Below are positions 5,475-23,223 of a stretch of DNA of 64,000 nt, piece by piece. Each line of letters begins with the position of its first letter. Within the stretch, counting starts at the first letter, position 1. The notes beneath the pieces were generated by a model that was given only the letters and a program-made list of their open reading frames with translations, did no database searches and was not told the origin of the DNA. Source of the DNA: Macrostomum lignano (Eukaryota); contig NIVC01001776.1 in the NCBI GenBank assembly GCA_002269645.1, positions 388,809-452,808 on the forward strand, given 5' to 3'. The translations under genes were made by a program, and so were the position numbers.

Positions 5475-5838
5475 AGTAGTAGGTAAAAAGACGCCTACAG
5501 ACCCAGAGCACTTTTTAAATAGCAGTTTTAAGGGTCTAGAGGGGGGACACGGGGGGTAAATAAAAAAACACATCTAAACACCCTTAACACATCTAATCAC
5601 CCATAAACACATCTAATCACCCTTAATACCAAAAAGCAATATAACCCACCCCCAACACCCCCAACACTCCCCCTCGTGTCCCCCCTCTGGAACCTTATAA
5701 ACGGCCATTAAAAAAGGTCTGATCTGTAAGCGTCGTTTTACCTACTACTACACAACCCAACACTCCCCAACACTTCTAACACTTCCAAATCTCTATAACC
5801 CCTCGCACGCGCCGCAGGCGCGAAGGGTCTTTTTCTGT
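5475..5838 (+). repeat. Left terminal inverted repeat (364 bp)
   Basis: Reverse complement of 22858-23223. The only differences I found are two G/C homopolymer runs (6 vs 7 nt). Confidence 0.96.
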
Positions 5839-6024
5839 AGTATGAAACTTCATACTAGCCCATTCATGAAGAGGAGGCATAATACCATATATGGCAGCGA
5901 GAGTTTCATTCATAAGTTATAAATCGTCTCTTTTTCTTATACCACCCACTGTTCTATTATTCTACCCCAACCTATTGTGCTTCCACTTCGTCTCTTTTTT
6001 CTGTTACTAAAAATAGAACAAAAA

Positions 6025-6435
6025 ATGACACACGTTACACATATGCAAAATCTGAACGAATTGCAGGTAGGAGACCCAATTGAATACCGAGGTGAGGGGC
6101 TTTTTGATGTGGTTGGTACAGCAGCGAATTTCGTTAAAGACAATATGGGTCTTATAGGCCAAGCAGGCTCTGCAGCAGGTTCTATAACAAACGCTGTAAA
6201 GGGCGGAATCGAAGCAGCGAGGGCAGTAGAAGAACTAAAGAAATTGAGAGAATTTAACGACACCCTCTCACAAATAAAAGCAATAAAAGATTTGAAACTA
6301 GCGCAGGAAACAACTCAAGCCGCACAACCAACAGAAACCCCCACGAAAAGCGCGCCAATAAGTAATAAAGATATTCAGGATTTTAATAAAATGTTAACCA
6401 CAATTAAAGGCGGAAAAGGATTAAAGAAATTTTAA
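6025..6435 (+). CDS. Small probable virion core protein (136 aa) with GxG adenain-type sites
   Basis: ATG in AAAAAATG context at 6025 (the ORF track starts earlier at a non-ATG codon). Motifs YRGEG|LF and IKGGKG|L resemble maturation-protease sites, followed by an amphipathic Gly/Ala helix. Confidence 0.65.
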   Translation: MTHVTHMQNLNELQVGDPIEYRGEGLFDVVGTAANFVKDNMGLIGQAGSAAGSITNAVKGGIEAARAVEELKKLREFNDTLSQIKAIKDLKLAQETTQAAQPTETPTKSAPISNKDIQDFNKMLTTIKGGKGLKKF

Positions 6436-6445
6436 CAATATAAAA

Positions 6446-7432
6446 ATGGACACAGATAACGACCGCTTATATTTTATAGGAGAAATTGTAGATACTTTAG
6501 ATCTAGATGATAATAAAAATAGCCACACAATGTTAAAAAGATTGGATCGTTTAGGTAAAAAACTTGACTACGATATCGATACATTTAAACTTGCTGCAAA
6601 ATATGCACAAGAAGGAAGGCCAATATCCTTTAAGAATCATGGCAGAAATTATAGGCTGACAGACTCTGATGTAAAATTTTTATTGGAGACTCACACTAAA
6701 AAAGACGGTGGGTTGTTACCTATTTTACCAATTCTTTTAGGCCTCGGAGCAGCCGGAGCAGCCGGTTTAGCAGGCAAAAGAATTCATGATAACCGAAAAC
6801 AGTTAGCAGAATTAAAAGCAAAACAAGGGGGGATATTGCCACTAGCAACTTTATTACCAATAATTTTTGCAGGAATAGGAGCAGCTGGTGGAATAGCAGG
6901 TGGCGCAGCTGGAATCACAAAAGCAGTAAATGATAAAAAAGCTGCGGATGAAAAAGCTAAACGAGATGCAGAATTTCAAAGACAGCAAATAACACAGGAC
7001 GCACAATTCAAACAGAAACTTATTGATACCATTAATAGTAGTTCAGCAACAGCAGAGCAAAAAAGAAATGCAGAAGCTAGGTTAGCAGCCGGAAAAGGTT
7101 TACTCTTGCAAGGAACAAATCACGGGAATGGTTTGGTTTTAAAAGGAACAACCCAAGGAAGTGGAGTTGTAGCAGATAAACTACATGAATTTGGCCAAAC
7201 TTTAGAAAAAACGGGTGAGAAAGCTAAAGGATTTTTTGACAATATTGGAGCTAATTTTAGACCAGCTGTTCAGAAAATTTTTAATAAATTAGGAAAAGAT
7301 TTTAACATCATTGAAAAACACGACGGAAGCGGATTATATCTCGAAATGAGACCAAAAGCAGGATCAGGAATTTTCTTAAATTCAAACGTTATGGGCAATG
7401 GATTGCTATTACCAAAAGCAGATCTCGAATAG
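6446..7432 (+). CDS. Membrane-active/core precursor with two adenovirus protein X (mu precursor)-like hydrophobic motifs
   Basis: KDGG|LLPILPILLGLGAAGAAG and KQGG|ILPLATLLPIIFAGIGAAGG resemble the adenovirus pX GGILPLLIPLIAAAIGA motif. Six GxG-hydrophobic motifs follow in the C-terminal half. Confidence 0.75.
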   Translation: MDTDNDRLYFIGEIVDTLDLDDNKNSHTMLKRLDRLGKKLDYDIDTFKLAAKYAQEGRPISFKNHGRNYRLTDSDVKFLLETHTKKDGGLLPILPILLGLGAAGAAGLAGKRIHDNRKQLAELKAKQGGILPLATLLPIIFAGIGAAGGIAGGAAGITKAVNDKKAADEKAKRDAEFQRQQITQDAQFKQKLIDTINSSSATAEQKRNAEARLAAGKGLLLQGTNHGNGLVLKGTTQGSGVVADKLHEFGQTLEKTGEKAKGFFDNIGANFRPAVQKIFNKLGKDFNIIEKHDGSGLYLEMRPKAGSGIFLNSNVMGNGLLLPKADLE

Positions 7433-7515
7433 GCTCCTGGGGGGTGGGTCTGGACACCAAAAACGCAAATTAAAAAATCAATAATTCAAATACTATATAA
7501 ATTATATTCTATAAA

Positions 7516-9903
7516 ATGGAAGCAATTTTAGCTCAAATCGACAACCCCGAACTTAGAGCACAATTAATAGCTCAAATCGAAGCACAACGAATTGCCGATA
7601 GGGCTGAAATAGAAGCTAGAATTAGGGCAGAAAATGAGATACGTTTAGAAAGACAATTAAATGATATTGATAACCCCCAACCACAAGGACAAAATGGAGC
7701 TGAAGTAATATATATAGATATAGATATAAATACAAATTATAAAGAATATTTTAAACAAATGAAAGATAAAATAAAGACCATATTAGATAACTATACTATA
7801 AGACCAAATAACAAACGACAGCCAATTAAGTATAAAATAGAAGTTGAAACAGAATTTAAAAAACCAAATATACTTAATGCAAATTCAGAAATTGAAGTAA
7901 TAAATAACTTTTCACAAGAATCATATAAGACATTACTATCAATGGGGAATTACAACAATCAATTCGATCAAATAGAAGCTGAGTTTGATGAATGGATAGA
8001 TAAGATGACAGAAAACGGATCTGGGTTTATATTTGTTTCATGTAATTCAGCAACAGTAAAGATTGTTCCTATTGAAATTCTTAAAGGGCGATCACACATG
8101 ACACCATTATTTAAATCACATATGATTATAAATCCAGACAATAAAGATAATAAATGTTTATTATGGTGTTTATTAATTCATAAATATCACAAACAAGTAG
8201 AATCCCACACTAATAAAATATATAATTATAAACAATATGAGGATGAAATAATAATGAAAAACATCACATACCCAGTAGCAATAGATGATATATATAAGAT
8301 TGAAAAAATGAATGGTTTAAATATTAATGTGTTTACAATTGAAGAACCAGGAGATCTAGAAGTAATTCTAGCCGACCCAGAATGGTATAAGAAAAGGTGT
8401 TATCTTGTTAAGCCAGCAACTGATATAACAGCACCAGATCAAATCGACCTTTTGTACATACAGCGTGAAAATGAAACACATTATATATACATAAAGGACA
8501 TTAGTTCCTTTTTAAGAGAAAATAGAAATAGATATCCACTATGTAGAAATTGTTTCACATTTAAAAAGGATGAAAAAGCTCTTAAAAATCATCAACGATT
8601 TTGTTTAGATCATAAATTTACTAATGTTGTACTGCCAGCATCTGAAGATGCAACCCTAAAGTTCCAACAACATTATATGGCAATTAAAAAACCAATAGTA
8701 ATATATGCTGATTTTGAAGCAACAAATGTTCCCTTAAAAGAATCACAGACGGTATCTGATGATGGAGAATGCACAAAAAAATTAGCACAACAGTTTCCGA
8801 ATAGTTATTGTATATATGTACACTCCGTAGCTGATCATATATTTAAATCAAGGATGATTACTTACCACGGTAAGGATGCAGCAAAACACATGGCAGAATC
8901 ATTAGTAAATGCATTTGAATATATTCAAAATCAATATGATAAATTATCAAAAAATATTATTATGACAGATAAGGATAGAGACAATTATAAAAATGCAACA
9001 AATTGTTTTATGTGCAAAAGAGATTTAAGTGGGAAAAATAAGATACGAGAACATTGTCATCTAACGGGAATTTATCGAGGGGCAGCATGTAGATCATGTA
9101 ACGCAAAAGAAGGAAAAGGATGTAAGGAAATACCAGTATTTTTTCATAATGGTTCCGGATATGACTTTCATTTCCTAGTTCGAGAATTGCTTCATTTAGG
9201 TAGGGATGAATATGAATTAAATATATTACCTAAAACATCAGAAAATTACATATCAATAACATATGGTAAGAAATACTCCCATCTAGTTTTTCTAGATTCC
9301 TTGAGATTCTTATCAACATCTTTAGCAAATGTTGTTTCATCATTAGTTCCAAAACCATGGGATTTAGAAATAGTAAAGAAAAACTTTACAATACTATTGA
9401 ATCAATTCAAAAAAGAAAAACTATCCGAGGAAGAACTAATGCTATTAACTCGCAAGGGCATCTACCCATATGAATATGTAACATCTGAAGACGTATTTTT
9501 TCATACCGAATTACCCCCAATTGAAAAGTTTTATTCAACATTATCACAAACAAACATAAGTGAATCGGATTATGAACACGCTCAAAAAGTATGGAAATAT
9601 TTTAATTGTAAAACATTTAAAGATTATCATAATCTATATCTTAAAGCAGATGTTCTCCTTTTAGCTGATGCATTTGAAAACTTTAGGAATCATACATATG
9701 AGAACTTTAAAATTGATCCCGCTTATTGTTTCAGTGCACCCGGATTAACATGGGCATGTGGTTTGAAATACACAGATGTTGAGATTGATTTACTAACTGA
9801 TCATGATATGTTGTTAATGATTGAGAGAGGAATTCGCGGTGGGTTCTCGGGGGTACTAGGAGATAGATATACTAAAGTAAATAATAAATATCTACCAAAT
9901 TAA
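7516..9903 (+). CDS. polB: Protein-primed family B DNA polymerase, N-terminal part (terminal-protein region, OTU-like domain, Zn finger, exonuclease with endonuclease VII-like insert)
   Basis: DNKCLLWC...THYIYI (OTU-like Cys/His), CRNC...HQRFC, IYADFE (ExoI), CFMC...EHCHLTGIYRGAACRSCN, FFHNGSGYDFHF (ExoII), LDSLRFL, RKGIYPY, YLKADVLLLAD (ExoIII), RGIRGG. Confidence 0.96.
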   Translation: MEAILAQIDNPELRAQLIAQIEAQRIADRAEIEARIRAENEIRLERQLNDIDNPQPQGQNGAEVIYIDIDINTNYKEYFKQMKDKIKTILDNYTIRPNNKRQPIKYKIEVETEFKKPNILNANSEIEVINNFSQESYKTLLSMGNYNNQFDQIEAEFDEWIDKMTENGSGFIFVSCNSATVKIVPIEILKGRSHMTPLFKSHMIINPDNKDNKCLLWCLLIHKYHKQVESHTNKIYNYKQYEDEIIMKNITYPVAIDDIYKIEKMNGLNINVFTIEEPGDLEVILADPEWYKKRCYLVKPATDITAPDQIDLLYIQRENETHYIYIKDISSFLRENRNRYPLCRNCFTFKKDEKALKNHQRFCLDHKFTNVVLPASEDATLKFQQHYMAIKKPIVIYADFEATNVPLKESQTVSDDGECTKKLAQQFPNSYCIYVHSVADHIFKSRMITYHGKDAAKHMAESLVNAFEYIQNQYDKLSKNIIMTDKDRDNYKNATNCFMCKRDLSGKNKIREHCHLTGIYRGAACRSCNAKEGKGCKEIPVFFHNGSGYDFHFLVRELLHLGRDEYELNILPKTSENYISITYGKKYSHLVFLDSLRFLSTSLANVVSSLVPKPWDLEIVKKNFTILLNQFKKEKLSEEELMLLTRKGIYPYEYVTSEDVFFHTELPPIEKFYSTLSQTNISESDYEHAQKVWKYFNCKTFKDYHNLYLKADVLLLADAFENFRNHTYENFKIDPAYCFSAPGLTWACGLKYTDVEIDLLTDHDMLLMIERGIRGGFSGVLGDRYTKVNNKYLPN

Positions 9904-17904: not shown

Positions 17905-19377
17905 CTACAGCGGCGCGTCCCGAACAATCGTGTCATCAGCTTTAGCAATTGACATATATTCCTCTAGAAACAATACGTGTGCGTCTATTGCCTGATTACC
18001 GGTTTTATTAATCTCTAACATGTAATTAAGTCCAATATTGGCTACGTTTTCTTTCTGTGCAGTTAGATCATAAACAACCACTGGATGAATGTTTAGAAAC
18101 TCTGTGGGTGTGTACTGAGGGACGGCATACGCTTCATTTTTGGCATAATCTTGATAATATTTTATAAAATCATTAACATTATTATTTGCAATATTTAGAT
18201 TAAGAGGATCTTTAACCGGATAATATTGATCATCAACCTGCAGGCGGATATTCTGAACATTAAACTCGTTAATAGCTGCAGCCGCATTGTCTGTTGCGGT
18301 GGCTGCTTGTTCTGCTATGGCGTCCGATTGAATCCAATATAAATCCCCATTTGCTCTTTTACTCCTTCTGTTTGTTATTTTAAACCAAACAAAAATATAT
18401 CTCACCCGGCGTTTTGATGTAATTATCTGCCACTGGAATGAATCCTGATTATTATTAATGGTTCGCATAAAATGTCGACGATTCAAATAAAATATTTCCT
18501 GATCATGAGTTAACTGATTATCGATATGTTTTAAAAGTGGGGCTGTTACCTCAAGAGTTGGCACGACTAATTGTATTGAATCTATGCGAACTGCTATATC
18601 GGTTGAAACCGAATTTCCAAAAAGTATCCTAGGCTGATATCCACCAGATATTTGCAACTGTATCCCAAATTTTAATCCTTTCCATACCCGATTTGGTGAG
18701 AAGAACCCAAATAGCGGAAAGATTGAAAAGTCTTGCTCATATGCTGTTGCTGTGGTTAAAACCGCGACTGGGAATTTATTCTGACGATCTATAAAACCCG
18801 TATTAATCTCTTTTGTATTAGTCATAGTGGTTACAACTGGAACTATATTGGTATTAAGGTAATTAATAAGAGCTGCGGTATCTGCACCGGCTGCTGGTGC
18901 TACGTTAGGAAAATTTATTGCTCCACCATCACCCTTATCGGGCATCCATCCAACATTATCACCAACTTGTTTTGATAAATAAGTATAATTTAAATGTTTC
19001 AAAACTCCATTAATCTCTGCGGGGTTTGATGCTGTCTCAACCTCGGCTCCATTAACTGACAGTTGTGCTTGGGAAAAACATTTATAAAACCAATCATTTT
19101 CTATTATTATTCCAGATCGATCTGCGATATCGCCGGCTGCAAGAGCGGTTCCATCATTTCTAGTATACAACCATCTAACACGGAAAAATGCATTTTTCAT
19201 ATCCAATATAGTGTTGGTTGCGCCGATGTCAAAAGTTACCGTTCCGGTAGTAAAGTTATTTGAATTATCACTTGTTGGTAGGGTATAATTCAAATCTCTT
19301 GCCCTAACCTCATTAATATACTGGCGGTGCTTTTTGAAATGAAATTTATCACTCCACATAGTTTTTGTTTCAGCCAT
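17905..19377 (-). CDS. MCP: Major capsid protein (double jelly-roll)
   Basis: 490-aa beta-rich protein adjacent to the ATPase and penton. FSQAQLSVNGAEVE, RIDSIQLVVPTL, RVRYIFVWF, NIRLQVDDQYYP, HPVVVYDLT. Confidence 0.88.
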   Translation of the reverse strand: MAETKTMWSDKFHFKKHRQYINEVRARDLNYTLPTSDNSNNFTTGTVTFDIGATNTILDMKNAFFRVRWLYTRNDGTALAAGDIADRSGIIIENDWFYKCFSQAQLSVNGAEVETASNPAEINGVLKHLNYTYLSKQVGDNVGWMPDKGDGGAINFPNVAPAAGADTAALINYLNTNIVPVVTTMTNTKEINTGFIDRQNKFPVAVLTTATAYEQDFSIFPLFGFFSPNRVWKGLKFGIQLQISGGYQPRILFGNSVSTDIAVRIDSIQLVVPTLEVTAPLLKHIDNQLTHDQEIFYLNRRHFMRTINNNQDSFQWQIITSKRRVRYIFVWFKITNRRSKRANGDLYWIQSDAIAEQAATATDNAAAAINEFNVQNIRLQVDDQYYPVKDPLNLNIANNNVNDFIKYYQDYAKNEAYAVPQYTPTEFLNIHPVVVYDLTAQKENVANIGLNYMLEINKTGNQAIDAHVLFLEEYMSIAKADDTIVRDAPL

Positions 19378-19411
19378 TTTTTTAAGTTAAAAAAGTTTTT
19401 TATGTTAAAAA

Positions 19412-20080
19412 ATGAGTCAATTTATGGATGTTGATGGAGAGTTAGCGATTTATAAAGAGAAGCAAAGATATTCTGATTTTGTTAGAAATTTACAAAAAAG
19501 AAAGTTAGGAATACAATTAGCTGGCGAAAGATTTGCTGCTCCTTTTGTTAATCCTATTACGGGGAAAATTAGTGAACTAGAAAAAACAGATAAAGACCTT
19601 CTGGAAAAAATTGCTAAGAATACTGAGCCAAAAGAGGATGTAATTTTGGATGAGCCGCCTGCTTATGATGTTGATCAAACACTATTGAGAATTGCAGAGA
19701 TTAGACGTGCAGAAAGGAATGGAGTTGAACAATATCCAAGAGTACCAGCTAGTATTGCTGCGATAGATTTAGGTAATAATAATTATCGAATTGGTGGAGT
19801 TGATAAAAATCGAAATGAACTATATAGAGAATTGGGTGGGGCATTTAATATTATTATGAACCCTAGGGTAAAATTTAACCCCGATTTATATACTAGGGAT
19901 GAATTAGTAAGTGCTAAAATTTTTTACGATGAGTTAGGAGGTGGAGGTGTTAAAAATACCAGCTTGTATAAAAGGATTGTTAATTCTATAAATAACAAAC
20001 CGGCTGTTGGAGAAGGATTTAAAACTCCTAGAAAACTTGTTTTAGCTGCTGCGAAAGCTGCTGGACATACAGGTGTTTAA
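19412..20080 (+). CDS. Conserved Polinton core-type protein (uncharacterised PZ/PW class, assignment uncertain)
   Basis: F..PIT...., YTRDEL, a GEG site and a terminal LAAAKAAGHTG resembling the LLAS..AG(N/H)TG motif I recall from Polinton proteins. It may be C-terminally truncated. Confidence 0.6.
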   Translation: MSQFMDVDGELAIYKEKQRYSDFVRNLQKRKLGIQLAGERFAAPFVNPITGKISELEKTDKDLLEKIAKNTEPKEDVILDEPPAYDVDQTLLRIAEIRRAERNGVEQYPRVPASIAAIDLGNNNYRIGGVDKNRNELYRELGGAFNIIMNPRVKFNPDLYTRDELVSAKIFYDELGGGGVKNTSLYKRIVNSINNKPAVGEGFKTPRKLVLAAAKAAGHTGV

Positions 20081-20103
20081 TTGTTAAATTTATTTTTTAT
20101 AAA

Positions 20104-20685
20104 ATGGTTGAAACAAAGATTTGTACTAAGTGTAAACAAGAAAAACCGATGACAAAAGAGTTTTATTTTTGGAGAAATGATTCAAAAAAATTTAGAAATG
20201 ATTGCCGATCTTGTCATAATGCCTCATCTGCTATTTGGATAAAAAACAATAAAGATAAATGGAATGAATATAGAAAAAATAAGTATCACACTGATGATAA
20301 TTACAAACATATTGTTTTAATTAGAAATAGAATAAATTGGGCGTTGAAAAATTTTAATGACAAGGACTATATCTCATATCTTGGTTGCACAAAAGAATTC
20401 TTTTTTGATTGGTTAAATTTCACAAGAAATTATTATGTATCAAAAGATTATACTGGAAAGTTAGATATTGATCATTTCATCCCCGCTTCTTCATTTACTT
20501 ACAAAGATAATGACCAGATGAAAAAGTCTGAAAACTGGAGAAATAAAAGATACTTAACTAGCGTAGATAATCGCTATAAAAAAGTTCAACAACCAACCAT
20601 TGAAGAGTTTGCAAAACAATTAGTGCTATCATGTATTTTTAAGGCTATTAAAAATGAGCGACCGAACGAAGTTCGCGAACCGTAG
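20104..20685 (+). CDS. Free-standing HNH (His-Me finger) homing-type endonuclease with N-terminal Zn finger
   Basis: CTKC...CRSC, YLGC, DIDHFIP, NWRN and DNRYKK (H-N-N), similar to giant-virus HNH proteins. It has its own TATAAAATG start. Confidence 0.88.
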   Translation: MVETKICTKCKQEKPMTKEFYFWRNDSKKFRNDCRSCHNASSAIWIKNNKDKWNEYRKNKYHTDDNYKHIVLIRNRINWALKNFNDKDYISYLGCTKEFFFDWLNFTRNYYVSKDYTGKLDIDHFIPASSFTYKDNDQMKKSENWRNKRYLTSVDNRYKKVQQPTIEEFAKQLVLSCIFKAIKNERPNEVREP

Positions 20686-20740
20686 GTTCGATCGTGCGAT
20701 GCACGCGTTCCGAAGGAACGATCAATTAGTATTTGAATGA

Positions 20741-20842
20741 GGATTTTTAGATGTTCAAAAAGGATTAACAAGCTTACCGAGTATTTTTACTACTGGAAGG
20801 TATACAAATGAATTACACCTGCCGTCGTATAATTTCACAGGT
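20741..20842 (+). CDS. PLA2-integrase gene, 5' exon (no in-frame ATG after the TGA at 20738)
   Basis: Reads GFLDVQKGLTSLPSIFTTGRYTNELHLPSYNFTG, the N-terminal half of a parvovirus-type PLA2 Ca loop. Not in the ORF track. Confidence 0.85.
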
Positions 20843-21143
20843 TACCCCGTGGCCTGAGTGAGGAAGTCAATGTCCTTGCTAGTCACTATTTGTGGCGACA
20901 TCTTCAAATTGCGTGAAACCCGTCATACAGCTTCAAGTACCACTTCAATTGAGAAATCTTTTGAAGGAACAGAGGTAACTCCTCTTCCCAACGGTAACAA
21001 GCTTGAAGACACGGTGGCAATGCGCAGCCAAGCTCCTAAGTATTTAAATATAAGGAGAAGGTTCAGAGAGCAGACGGAGATGGGCGGTAATTTATCCGCT
21101 TAAGGTGTGCTCCAGCCTATTTCGAAAGATTTAGGGCAAACTA
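20843..21143 (+). ncRNA. Group I self-splicing intron, IC1-like, ORF-less, 301 nt
   Basis: P AAAUUGCGUGAAA, Q AAUGCGCAGC, R GUUCAGAGAGCA and S UAAGGUGUGCUCC elements are present in order. P1, P2.1, P3, P4, P5abc, P6, P7, P8, P9, P9.0 and P10 can all be paired. Removal restores FTG-PGT in frame. Confidence 0.93.
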
Positions 21144-22295
21144 CCCGGCACTCGCTTAGATTTGAGATTAAATCCTGATGATGACACTCCAAAAGCTGAT
21201 TCAATTCCCATTAACGGCATTGATTGGTTAGCATATTATCATGACTTAGCATACAGAGATGCTGATAAGAACACACCCGAAGAAGCATTAAGATTAAAAC
21301 ATGAAGCCGATAGAAAAATGATTCAAGGATTAGATAACTTACAAGGATTATCGGTAAGCCAAAGATTAACTCGGTGGATGGTTAAAAAAATCTTACAGTC
21401 TAAAGTTAAATTTGGTTTGGGAATTAATTACAACCAACATGGAAATAATTGTGTTGAGTGTTTATTATTAAGTGGTGGTGGGTTAAGTTTTGATGAGGCA
21501 AAGATTCTTCATAAAGAATATCGAAAACCTAAATTTTATAGAAAAATCATGAACTTCAAAAAGAACGAAATTTGGTATGCTGATTTAATGTCTATGCCGA
21601 TCGATAAAGGATATAAATATATTTTAACCATATTAGATGGTTTTACTCGATACGCGTGGGCAGTTCCTTTAAAATCCAAAAAAGGAGAGGAGGTTGCTGC
21701 TGCTTTTAGAAGCCTTGATGAAAAAAGCGAACGGTTGTGTGTTGATGAGGGAAAAGAATTTTACAATCCTCATATGTATAAATTATATCATTTTGAAAAT
21801 GGACAAGAAAGGAAAAAGGACGCGAATGGGGAGTATATTAATAAAATTTATTCTATTTATGGTGAAAGTAAAAATGCTTTAATAGAAAGATTTAATCGAA
21901 CTTTAGGTAAGAAATTGTGGTTTCAGTTTAGTCTTAATGGTAACCAAAAGTGGGTAAAAATATTACCAGATGTCGTGAAAGATTATAACAATTCATATCA
22001 TTCGGCAATAAAGATGACTCCTCAACAAGCTTATAACAATCCTGAAAACGTTAAAGTTACTTTTGGAAAATTTGAAAAAAATAAAAAGAAATCTTTTAAG
22101 GTTGGTGATTCTGTTTATATCTATAAATGGAAAAATAAGTTTGAAAAGGGAAGAAAAGGATATTGGAAAATAAGTGAGAAATTTACCATCAGTAAAGTTT
22201 TAAATACAAATCCTACAACCTATATAATTGCTGATAAGGATGGTGAAGAAATATTGGGTTCGTTTTATGAGAACCAACTAATATCAGCGAACTAA
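21144..22295 (+). CDS. INT: PLA2-integrase gene, 3' exon: parvovirus-type phospholipase A2 fused to a retroviral-type DDE integrase
   Basis: PGTRLDLRLNP...PINGID..AYYHDLAY...HEAD (PLA2 HD/D), KVKFGLG linker, then LHK..RK, WYADL (D), CVDEGKEF (D), LIERFNRTL (E) and a C-terminal FKVGD...GSFYENQL. Confidence 0.95.
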   Translation, partial: PGTRLDLRLNPDDDTPKADSIPINGIDWLAYYHDLAYRDADKNTPEEALRLKHEADRKMIQGLDNLQGLSVSQRLTRWMVKKILQSKVKFGLGINYNQHGNNCVECLLLSGGGLSFDEAKILHKEYRKPKFYRKIMNFKKNEIWYADLMSMPIDKGYKYILTILDGFTRYAWAVPLKSKKGEEVAAAFRSLDEKSERLCVDEGKEFYNPHMYKLYHFENGQERKKDANGEYINKIYSIYGESKNALIERFNRTLGKKLWFQFSLNGNQKWVKILPDVVKDYNNSYHSAIKMTPQQAYNNPENVKVTFGKFEKNKKKSFKVGDSVYIYKWKNKFEKGRKGYWKISEKFTISKVLNTNPTTYIIADKDGEEILGSFYENQLISAN

Positions 22296-22305
22296 GTTCG
22301 AACAA

Positions 22306-22530
22306 TTACTTGAGGCAGCATGGTAGTAAATTTTTTATAACAAACAAAAACAATATTATTACTATTATTGTTACTAATATAATTATTGACATTTGTTCAA
22401 CTGTTATCAAACTTAAATTTTCATTAAGTTCATTAATTGGAACATTTCCGATGTAGGAGTAATTTACCTTCATTTTTTTATATATATTTTTCATAATAAA
22501 TGTTGTTTCTGTTATAGAATAATAGTTCAT
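22306..22530 (-). CDS. Small single-pass membrane protein (74 aa) ending LLPCCLK
   Basis: AAAAAAATG at 22530, with hydrophobic run IIILVTIIVIILFLFVI. Confidence 0.6.
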   Translation of the reverse strand: MNYYSITETTFIMKNIYKKMKVNYSYIGNVPINELNENLSLITVEQMSIIILVTIIVIILFLFVIKNLLPCCLK

Positions 22531-22534
22531 TTTT

Positions 22535-22849
22535 TTACATAAAAATTTCAATTTCATTCTCAGAATCACTAGTTTCATATGAGCTATTTGTTGAGTTGGA
22601 ATCGTCTGAACGAACCTCCCAATCATCCGAATTTAAATAATTTCCAAGTTGAAATATTAACTCACCCTCTTGTTCTAAATCATACATCTCATCCAACTCT
22701 AATGGATAAAGTTTTAGGTCATGCTTGTCGTCATATTTTAAATAAACTTCATCAATTATTCCATTCAAAATATGTTGTTTTATTATCTCTGCATTTTTAG
22801 CAACAGTCTCAAAAGTATCACTAACAGAAAAGGTGTAAACTCGGGTCAT
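22535..22849 (-). CDS. Acidic hypothetical protein (104 aa)
   Basis: TAAAAATG start immediately inside the right TIR. D/E/S-rich C-terminus. Confidence 0.6.
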   Translation of the reverse strand: MTRVYTFSVSDTFETVAKNAEIIKQHILNGIIDEVYLKYDDKHDLKLYPLELDEMYDLEQEGELIFQLGNYLNSDDWEVRSDDSNSTNSSYETSDSENEIEIFM

Positions 22850-22857
22850 TTTTAGTA

Positions 22858-23223
22858 ACAGAAAAAGACCCTTCGCGCCTGCGGCGCGTGCGAGGGGTTA
22901 TAGAGATTTGGAAGTGTTAGAAGTGTTGGGGAGTGTTGGGTTGTGTAGTAGTAGGTAAAACGACGCTTACAGATCAGACCTTTTTTAATGGCCGTTTATA
23001 AGGTTCCAGAGGGGGGGACACGAGGGGGAGTGTTGGGGGTGTTGGGGGTGGGTTATATTGCTTTTTGGTATTAAGGGTGATTAGATGTGTTTATGGGTGA
23101 TTAGATGTGTTAAGGGTGTTTAGATGTGTTTTTTTATTTACCCCCCGTGTCCCCCCCTCTAGACCCTTAAAACTGCTATTTAAAAAGTGCTCTGGGTCTG
23201 TAGGCGTCTTTTTACCTACTACT
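22858..23223 (-). repeat. Right terminal inverted repeat (366 bp)
   Basis: Mirror of the left TIR, ending ...TTTTACCTACTACT. Confidence 0.96.

Follow-up and report, generated by a model that had tools for sequence, protein, structure and literature searches.

Animal nuclear Polintons with a group I intron in their PLA2-integrase gene

The segment 20843–21143 of the window (the whole 64,000-nucleotide stretch of DNA analysed here) is a group I intron by its fold, and the Polinton that carries it resides in an animal nuclear genome. The intron interrupts the Ca-loop codons of a phospholipase (PLA2) domain that is fused to an integrase, and three allele states of this site coexist: a long intron bearing a nuclease gene, a gene-less short intron such as that of the window, and the empty site. 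It is a known ribozyme class in an unreported setting and with an unusual terminal base. We infer splicing, catalysis, cleavage and homing from the observed fold, borders, allele states and setting, and we give a probability of roughly 0.6 to the reading in which the intron splices through the two-step guanosine pathway, slowly or with host aid where it ends in A, and spreads by a nuclease acting in trans.

Fold, borders and terminal base of the intron

A sensitive covariance scan of positions 20600–21400 matched the Rfam group I model RF00028 at 20833–21134 over the full model length, with 65.3 bits (gathering cut-off 50) and an E value of 3.2e-16. An earlier note, made from the letters alone, had placed a group I intron at 20843–21143 and had named a covariance search as one check; its assignment is borne out. 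An Rfam scan of the whole window with fast filters returned 0 matches, so the default filters overlooked the window copy and other such introns may therefore have been overlooked. Related introns in other loci scored 62–91 bits with the same model, which exceeded its cut-off in the window, in loci L013, L015 and L025 and in the environmental (metagenome) contig L208, and gave no match in the intron-less genes L065 and L081.

Every helix arm listed in that note was found at the position it gave, including the U-G pair of P1, the GAAA loop of P5b and 4/5 pairs of P10 in the window copy; the arms of P4, P6a and P8 are likewise present. Its description lacked the terminal A, P2, P9.0, the fusion of PLA2 with the integrase, the putative nuclease-bearing parent and a stop in exon 1. 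The intron segment has a minimum free energy of -92.5 kcal/mol, compared with -82.4 +/- 5.1 kcal/mol for 100 dinucleotide shuffles (z -2.0). The U-G pair in P1 was conserved in 18/18 distinct alignment rows, and the guanosine-binding pair G21068-C21112 was canonical in 27/29. Across the short, long and L208 forms, two-sided changes occurred in 20 of the 79 pairs listed, a count made without a shuffle control; nine of these pairs rest on at least 11 rows (P3, P4, P5a, P5b, P5c, P9 and three in P7), the remaining 11 rest on a single row each, and 3/79 listed pairs are non-standard. The three changes in P7 are compensatory between the short and long forms. Such compensatory changes support the fold. 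The peripheral set of subclass IC1 comprises P2, P2.1, P5abc and P9.1/P9.2; the intron has P2, P2.1 and P5abc, and leaves no room for P9.1/P9.2. Its tetraloop receptor differs from the long-form version in 19/20 short loci, which counts against splicing of the short form.

Both borders were fixed by comparison with empty genes. A degenerate Ca-loop pattern retrieved 27 intron-less PLA2 genes from the same genome with an unbroken YxF/YxG-PGT motif (reversed-pattern control, 0), three of them (L065, L076 and L081) from the window's own subfamily, and the motif was also unbroken in 46 of the 120 homologues listed. Because the intron-less sisters run straight through, the borders lie at 20842/20843 and 21143/21144, and for the same reason the 3' border falls after 21143 and not after 21134, where the Rfam match ends. 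The earlier claim that excision restores the Ca-loop agrees with these exact borders; in the window copy, a premature stop in exon 1 (20738-40) means that excision would not yield the full protein.

The two ends of the insert also resemble spliceosomal signals, with a donor-like CAG/GU lying two bases before the group I site and an AG close to its 3' end, so a spliceosome could be imagined to remove it; likewise, the end of the Rfam match might mark G21134 as the 3' site used by the ribozyme. Both proposals are very improbable. Of the nine acceptors between 21040 and 21260 that are in frame with this donor, four precede a stop and five delete Ca-loop residues, which makes the spliceosomal route unlikely. 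G21134 is paired in P9 in 29/29 distinct rows, P9.0 points to 21143, and the empty alleles contain no extra residues.

The last base of the intron is A21143 and not the near-universal G. Exact patterns (controls 0) recovered at least 86 short copies, of which 73 end in A (omega-A) and 13 in G (omega-G), all of these counts being lower bounds; the terminal base was G in 27/27 long copies with both ends and also in L208. The omega-A state is thus a lineage trait of the short copies. The guanosine-binding pair is canonical and therefore the pocket has not switched along with the terminal A. Accepted group I introns without a terminal G exist (hexacoral ND5-717), and therefore the missing omega-G marks a variant. 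An exon 2 start that adds one P10 pair occurs in 67/73 omega-A copies compared with 1/13 omega-G copies, an association that may reflect one linked event. A stronger guide sequence specific to omega-A was considered and rejected: 6/8 omega-G short copies share the guide found in most of 42 omega-A copies, and only the exon +3 base co-segregates with omega-A. At position -1, U was present in 48/48 intron-bearing loci compared with 2/27 empty loci, a contrast that is suggestive only because the empty loci fall into about five lineages.

The 3'-terminal stretch of the intron (21104-21143; examined in L002-L020) lies in frame with exon 2 and is open in most copies, the window having a stop at 21132-34. 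In this frame, which runs from the intron into exon 2, the terminal A or G is the third base of a Leu codon. Two database integrases start with a read-through of the intron 3' end.

Table 1. Features of the Polinton, the interrupted gene and the intron, in window coordinates.
Feature	Position	Strand	Evidence or remark
Left TIR	5475..5838		Target duplication 5469-74
Right TIR; 364/364 aligned bases identical, one 2-nt indel	22858..23223		Target duplication 23224-29
Family B DNA polymerase, protein-primed, with a frame break near 9900 and an endonuclease VII-like insert within its N-terminal half	7516..11476	+	Atlas 0.96-0.97 to PF03175 clusters
A32-like packaging ATPase	17120..17884	-	PF04665, 27.6 bits (cut-off 22.8)
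Double jelly-roll major capsid protein	17905..19377	-	PF21738 matched by 13/16 tested homologues, 12 above cut-off
Free-standing HNH/endonuclease VII-like gene	20104..20685	+	PHROG 1035, E 1.5e-8
Exon 1 of PLA2-integrase gene; premature stop 20738-40 in window copy; short palindromic inserts near start	20654..20842	+	
Group I intron, ORF-less, 301 nt, IC-type architecture (P2, P2.1, P5abc, single P9)	20843..21143	+	RF00028, helix arms, intron-less sisters, covariation
P1, with U20842-G20852 wobble at the 5' splice site; guide strand also forms P10 with exon 2	20838..20856	+	Arms 20838-42/20852-56
P2	20857-64/20873-80	+	Helix present
P2.1 hairpin; loop is the seat of the endonuclease gene in the long intron form	20882..20896	+	
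P3	20899-905/21076-82	+	Both arms located
P5 and P5abc, A-rich bulge, GAAA loop at 20953-56 (P5b)	20920..21014	+	
P7 (21066-72 with 21108-13); guanosine-binding pair G21068-C21112, bulged A21067 before it; encloses P3 3' strand and P8	21066..21113	+	
P9.0 (21114-15/21141-42), P9 with GAAA loop, terminal A21143 (omega-A)	21114..21143	+	
Exon 2: rest of PLA2 domain and rve integrase; internal Met at 21318	21144..22295	+	Sub-threshold matches to PF08398 (E 0.0034) and, narrowly, to PF00665 (E 4e-7)

The interrupted gene, its Polinton and the animal nuclear setting

A single reading frame, from ATG 20654 to 22295, makes up the interrupted gene; it encodes a parvovirus-type PLA2 domain fused to an rve integrase, and the two domains occur jointly on many homologues. 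Unspliced, the frame ends at TGA 20855-57, as the earlier note had read it. Stops in exon 1 were found in 2/20 short-intron loci, and the last 40 codons of exon 1 were stop-free in 18/20.

The gene belongs to a complete Polinton of 17.7 kb at 5475-23223, with TIRs of 364-366 nt starting AGT and a 6-bp target duplication, which together with its Polinton gene set confirms the carrier proposed in the earlier note (Table 1). Two further ORFs (15697-16137 and 16320-17105), for which no family match was found, are candidates for the maturation protease and the minor capsid protein by motifs and position. The break in the polymerase frame near 9900 may be decay or an assembly error. Judged by its sequence, the window element is probably a recent insertion of a defective copy. 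The capsid protein gave no match among GenBank phages, and its single-sequence fold (pLDDT 30) produced no usable model.

The assembly, of 764 Mb, contained 86 Wnt exon matches and is therefore an animal genome. Copies of the intron share contigs C506, C393 and C67, which are distinct from the window's own contig, with Wnt exons. The same 39-nt minisatellite lies on both flanks of the window element, and GC drops from about 0.43 to 0.31 at the element ends. These observations place the intron-bearing Polinton in the animal nuclear genome, in agreement with the host suggested by the earlier note. That the element came from a protist or fungal contaminant, or that the contig is misassembled, which the note had listed as a possible refutation, is hardly credible. 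No host gene was recognized in the window flanks (0/15 ORFs with a Pfam match) and long reads spanning the window insertion were not seen, which would fit such an origin; against it stand the perfect 6-bp target duplication, the minisatellite common to both flanks, the copies on Wnt-bearing contigs, the recovery of at least 86 short and at least 28 long copies, and the coverage of all 30 bins of a sister locus by 4 runs from 4 studies under one organism label. Several Wnt loci were present in 2-4 near-identical copies on separate contigs; the assembly therefore holds haplotypes or duplications, and intron copy counts may be inflated. A search for COX1, made for the host mitochondrial code, gave a single weak match. 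The right flank (23224-64000) is rich in minisatellites with periods of 14-41 nt, and no gene was recognized in it.

Several other features of the element were recorded. The N-terminal half of the polymerase (7516-9903) contains an endonuclease VII-like domain (PF02945 above cut-off), a feature reminiscent of the HNH insert described for pPolB2 of nematodes and oomycetes (10.1101/2023.08.22.554363). Short palindromes of 20-45 nt are inserted repeatedly in the element genes (10742-10774, 11817-11853, 20660-20725), often in frame, and such inserts are also found in intron loops of other copies, their presence varying among copies; in sequence they look like a tiny mobile repeat within the Polinton. 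At least three A residues directly precede the ATG, often after TA or TT, in 13/14 element ORFs (6025-22849), which is possibly a viral promoter or just a start context. The 661-aa gene at 13701-15686 is a fibre-like candidate, since it combines 7.5 copies of a 19-residue repeat (57-nt period) with an F5/8 carbohydrate-binding domain, and the 6446-7432 protein shows weak similarity to adenovirus pX (PF05829, below cut-off).

Proposed splicing route and relatives of the intron

In the route that we consider probable, a mobile group I intron of giant-virus type would have colonised the Ca-loop codons of the PLA2-integrase gene in animal nuclear Polintons. Its RNA would fold, free guanosine bound at G21068-C21112 would attack after U20842, and the freed exon would then attack after A21143, with P9.0 and P10 positioning the 3' site, both steps being modelled on group I biochemistry. 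The terminal A bears directly on the second step; this would probably proceed more slowly with A than with G and could depend on host proteins, as for hexacoral ND5-717. Splicing would thereby gate the PLA2-integrase protein.

Contigs of sequencing runs were placed on L019:900-2800, a major-family omega-A copy distinct from the window copy. This comparison covered the contigs of 4/24 runs, three of the runs being guessed to be RNA, and such contigs show presence only. Some of them bridge the border between intron and exon 2 (X19 record 11, X20 record 28) and hence represent unspliced RNA or DNA. Among the six joints listed for the four runs, none lay at the intron borders; one X20 joint (1667 to 1826) matches neither splice site. 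In all, 20/24 sequencing-run rows match part of the stretch, none of them half or more. An intron-less DNA copy with the junction of the major family was not found in the assembly.

Constraint within the omega-A copies was assessed on 14 distinct sequences. P4 and P7 are invariant and both changes in P3 keep pairing, while 17/226 paired or core positions vary compared with 11/75 peripheral ones, a difference that is not significant (P = 0.07). Pairing is broken by nine alternative pair types and retained by seven, for the most part in P5 and at the tip of P6b. Taken by themselves, the omega-A sequences thus suggest weak constraint. This weak constraint would suit a short omega-A intron that is stalled or dead at the second step and hitch-hikes with the element, only omega-G copies splicing and the integrase being made from an internal Met or in trans, with PLA2 lost. 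Such a reading, which we regard as unlikely, could also draw on published descriptions of the terminal G as universally conserved and required for step 2 (PMC6545197, PMC8146996), on the internal Met at 21318, which could give integrase without splicing, and on the contigs that bridge the 3' border. Furthermore, the window copy transposed recently despite its broken exon 1 and polymerase, and therefore mobilisation in trans happens. It is opposed by the prevalence of A, which is the majority state (73/86) and occurs on several exon backgrounds and both P9 types, and by the intact core helices of the 14 distinct omega-A sequences. The co-occurrence of A with the extra P10 pair also speaks against it, though this is maybe one linked event. 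There is, moreover, a hexacoral precedent: the omega-A intron ND5-717 is ligated exactly in vivo, at low efficiency and with over 70% unspliced (PMC6545197, section 8). Splicing of the A-ending copies, slow or host-aided, remains our preferred reading.

The closest relatives of the core were found in viruses. A 17-nt core motif occurs in at least 125 IMG/VR stretches, many in giant-virus bins, the best of which are about 70-80% identical to the window intron over partial lengths. Judging from their translations, the genes that these relatives interrupt encode RNA polymerase, a late transcription factor, Hsp70, ubiquitin and capsid proteins. An unrooted tree of 60 core rows (L022 dropped) places the Polinton cores among those of giant viruses and cannot identify a donor. 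A 5'-end pattern gave 46 IMG/VR matches, none with an intron core or PLA2. The nearest cores found thus show kinship with giant-virus introns, and the viral affinity surmised in the earlier note holds to that extent.

This kinship raises the question of whether splicing is confined to a virus phase, for example in the cytoplasmic factory of a helper giant virus, with the chromosomal copies serving as a store and host polymerase II transcripts left unspliced. The closest cores do lie in giant-virus genes, the HNH-like gene upstream also matches genes in those viral loci, 13/14 element ORFs carry the A-run before ATG, and other nuclear group I introns are confined to rDNA (PMC3679873). Nevertheless, the A-run may be mere translation start context in AT-rich DNA and engineered group I ribozymes function in mammalian cells (PMC6155759), and we consider this confinement quite improbable.

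Compared with known systems, the intron combines familiar features in a different way. Group I introns (RF00028) have been reported in Polinton-like viruses of the Rhodomonas lacustris, Paulinella micropora and Desmodesmus armatus genomes (PMC12220804); these are alike in their length of about 300-380 nt and in interrupting a protein gene of a Polinton-type virus that is integrated in nuclear DNA, and differ in their protist or algal hosts, in the R. lacustris site (a short gene before the capsid gene) and in having no homing nuclease assigned in that source. Here the host is an animal, the site is the PLA2-integrase Ca-loop, the nuclease is Eco47II-like and the terminal base is A. The giant-virus introns share a related ribozyme core, and those of Bodo saltans virus polr2a/b also share insertion in a conserved motif and the presence of nuclease-bearing 'parental' beside ORF-less 'offspring' forms (PMC5871332). 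They reside, in contrast, in protist-infecting viruses, use HNH or GIY-YIG nucleases and have had their splicing confirmed by RT-PCR (PMC5871332), whereas the forms described here share one site in a chromosomally integrated animal element. Hexacoral mitochondrial ND5-717 is likewise an animal group I intron in a protein gene without a terminal G (PMC6545197, PMC8146996), but it is mitochondrial and obligatory, has a giant P8 insertion and is described as fungal in origin, whereas the present intron is nuclear, optional and A/G-polymorphic. The nuclear rDNA introns of protists and fungi resemble it in being nuclear, in having P2.1 and P5abc and in carrying nuclease genes in peripheral loops (PMC3679873); they are all in rDNA and have His-Cys box nucleases, in contrast to the protein-coding gene and PD-(D/E)xK fold found here. 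As for the carrier, animal Polintons, Mavericks and adintoviruses have the same TIRs, 6-bp duplication, pPolB, rve integrase, A32 ATPase, double jelly-roll capsid and PLA2 domain, but their PLA2 is joined to pX (PLA2X) rather than fused to the integrase (PMC8502044).

According to reviews, nuclear group I introns are restricted to the rRNA genes of microbial eukaryotes (PMC3679873); in animals, a 2025 survey of the NT database found group I introns in placozoans, corals and sponges alone, mostly mitochondrial (PMC11835236). Records also exist for shark ITS and beetle rDNA (PMC10964413, PMC11782384). A search of the openly accessible literature gave no published case of such an intron in a Polinton of an animal or in a nuclear protein gene of an animal; supplementary intron tables (e.g. 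those of PMC12220804 and PMC11835236) may bear on this. A keyword check of adintovirus, nematode and coral Polinton papers likewise found none reported, and the terms do not occur in PMC11131425. Since group I introns are already published in protist Polinton-like viruses (PMC12220804), the novelty lies in the animal host, the insertion site within the integrase gene, the putative homing system and the terminal A. The present case bears on why group I introns are absent from nuclear mRNA genes and most animals, and suggests Polintons as vehicles that bring giant-virus ribozymes into animal germlines.

Allele states, the putative nuclease and mobility

An RF00028 search of the genome gave 28 candidates, all of which scored above the cut-off. 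These come from a second Polinton family, whose exons are about 60% identical and whose intron, in the same position, measures about 840-900 nt. A gene in the P2.1 loop, running on into the core, accounts for the additional length; it matches the Eco47II family of PD-(D/E)xK nucleases (PF09553, 30.6 bits; cut-off 25.9) and is absent from the window copy. Among homologues elsewhere, 10/17 read on into the same ribozyme core, and the environmental contig L208 has the same intron, nuclease and insertion site. A nuclease alignment search returned 80 metagenome loci, of which only L208 has the intron, and 10 distant IMG/VR loci. Searches of IMG/VR with the nuclease, PLA2-integrase and capsid proteins confirmed no relative, and no PDB relative of the nuclease was found. 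The short intron of the window is a gene-less derivative of the long form. From its position, the Eco47II-like protein is a putative homing nuclease and probably represents a new homing nuclease family. I-Ssp6803I and I-Bth0305I provide parallels of a PD-(D/E)xK restriction-enzyme fold serving a group I intron (PMC3424549), although in that source the Eco47II family figures solely among bacterial restriction enzymes.

Just ahead of the PLA2-integrase gene, the slot equivalent to window 20104-20685 is a swappable nuclease cassette: it contains a free-standing Eco47II-like gene in 6/20 short-intron loci (L006, L008, L010-L012 and L014; 64-69% identical) and an HNH-like gene in 14/20. Joint movement of this HNH-like gene with the intron was considered and rejected, as 3/3 empty sisters carry the gene too.

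Divergence was analysed in 13/18 omega-A loci, three having been dropped for indels and two as near-duplicates. Synonymous divergence was 0.32 in exon 1 and 0.24 in exon 2 compared with 0.055 in intron loops, the latter biased downwards by the choice of the 20 short loci as best matches by intron identity. This contrast fits a recent lateral spread of the intron. The pN/pS of the omega-A exons was 0.29 (exon 1) and 0.11 (exon 2); if the intron arrived recently, this purifying selection predates it and says little on splicing. In the exon tree, which has long branches and rough support, empty alleles nest among intron-bearing ones in both families. As the divergence values suggest, the short intron may have passed from one divergent Polinton copy to another through homing or gene conversion, with an Eco47II-like nuclease provided in trans either by the long form or by the upstream free-standing paralogue.

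More tentatively, these states may belong to a live germline homing-intron cycle, in which the ribozyme would splice nuclear mRNA in animal cells, mostly with a terminal A throttling the integrase, and the Eco47II-family nuclease would still be copying the intron. [quoted passage not shown] With more than 100 copies in a protein gene of animal chromosomes, in natural A-ending, G-ending, nuclease-bearing and empty states, the system allows splicing from an animal nuclear transcript, 3' site choice without a terminal G and homing between endogenous virus copies to be studied without engineering.

An Eco47II-like protein of the intron type forms cluster P0006, whose 30 members are nearly identical and lie on contigs of 7-65 kb; all come from one source type, perhaps a different eukaryote in which intron-bearing elements are numerous.
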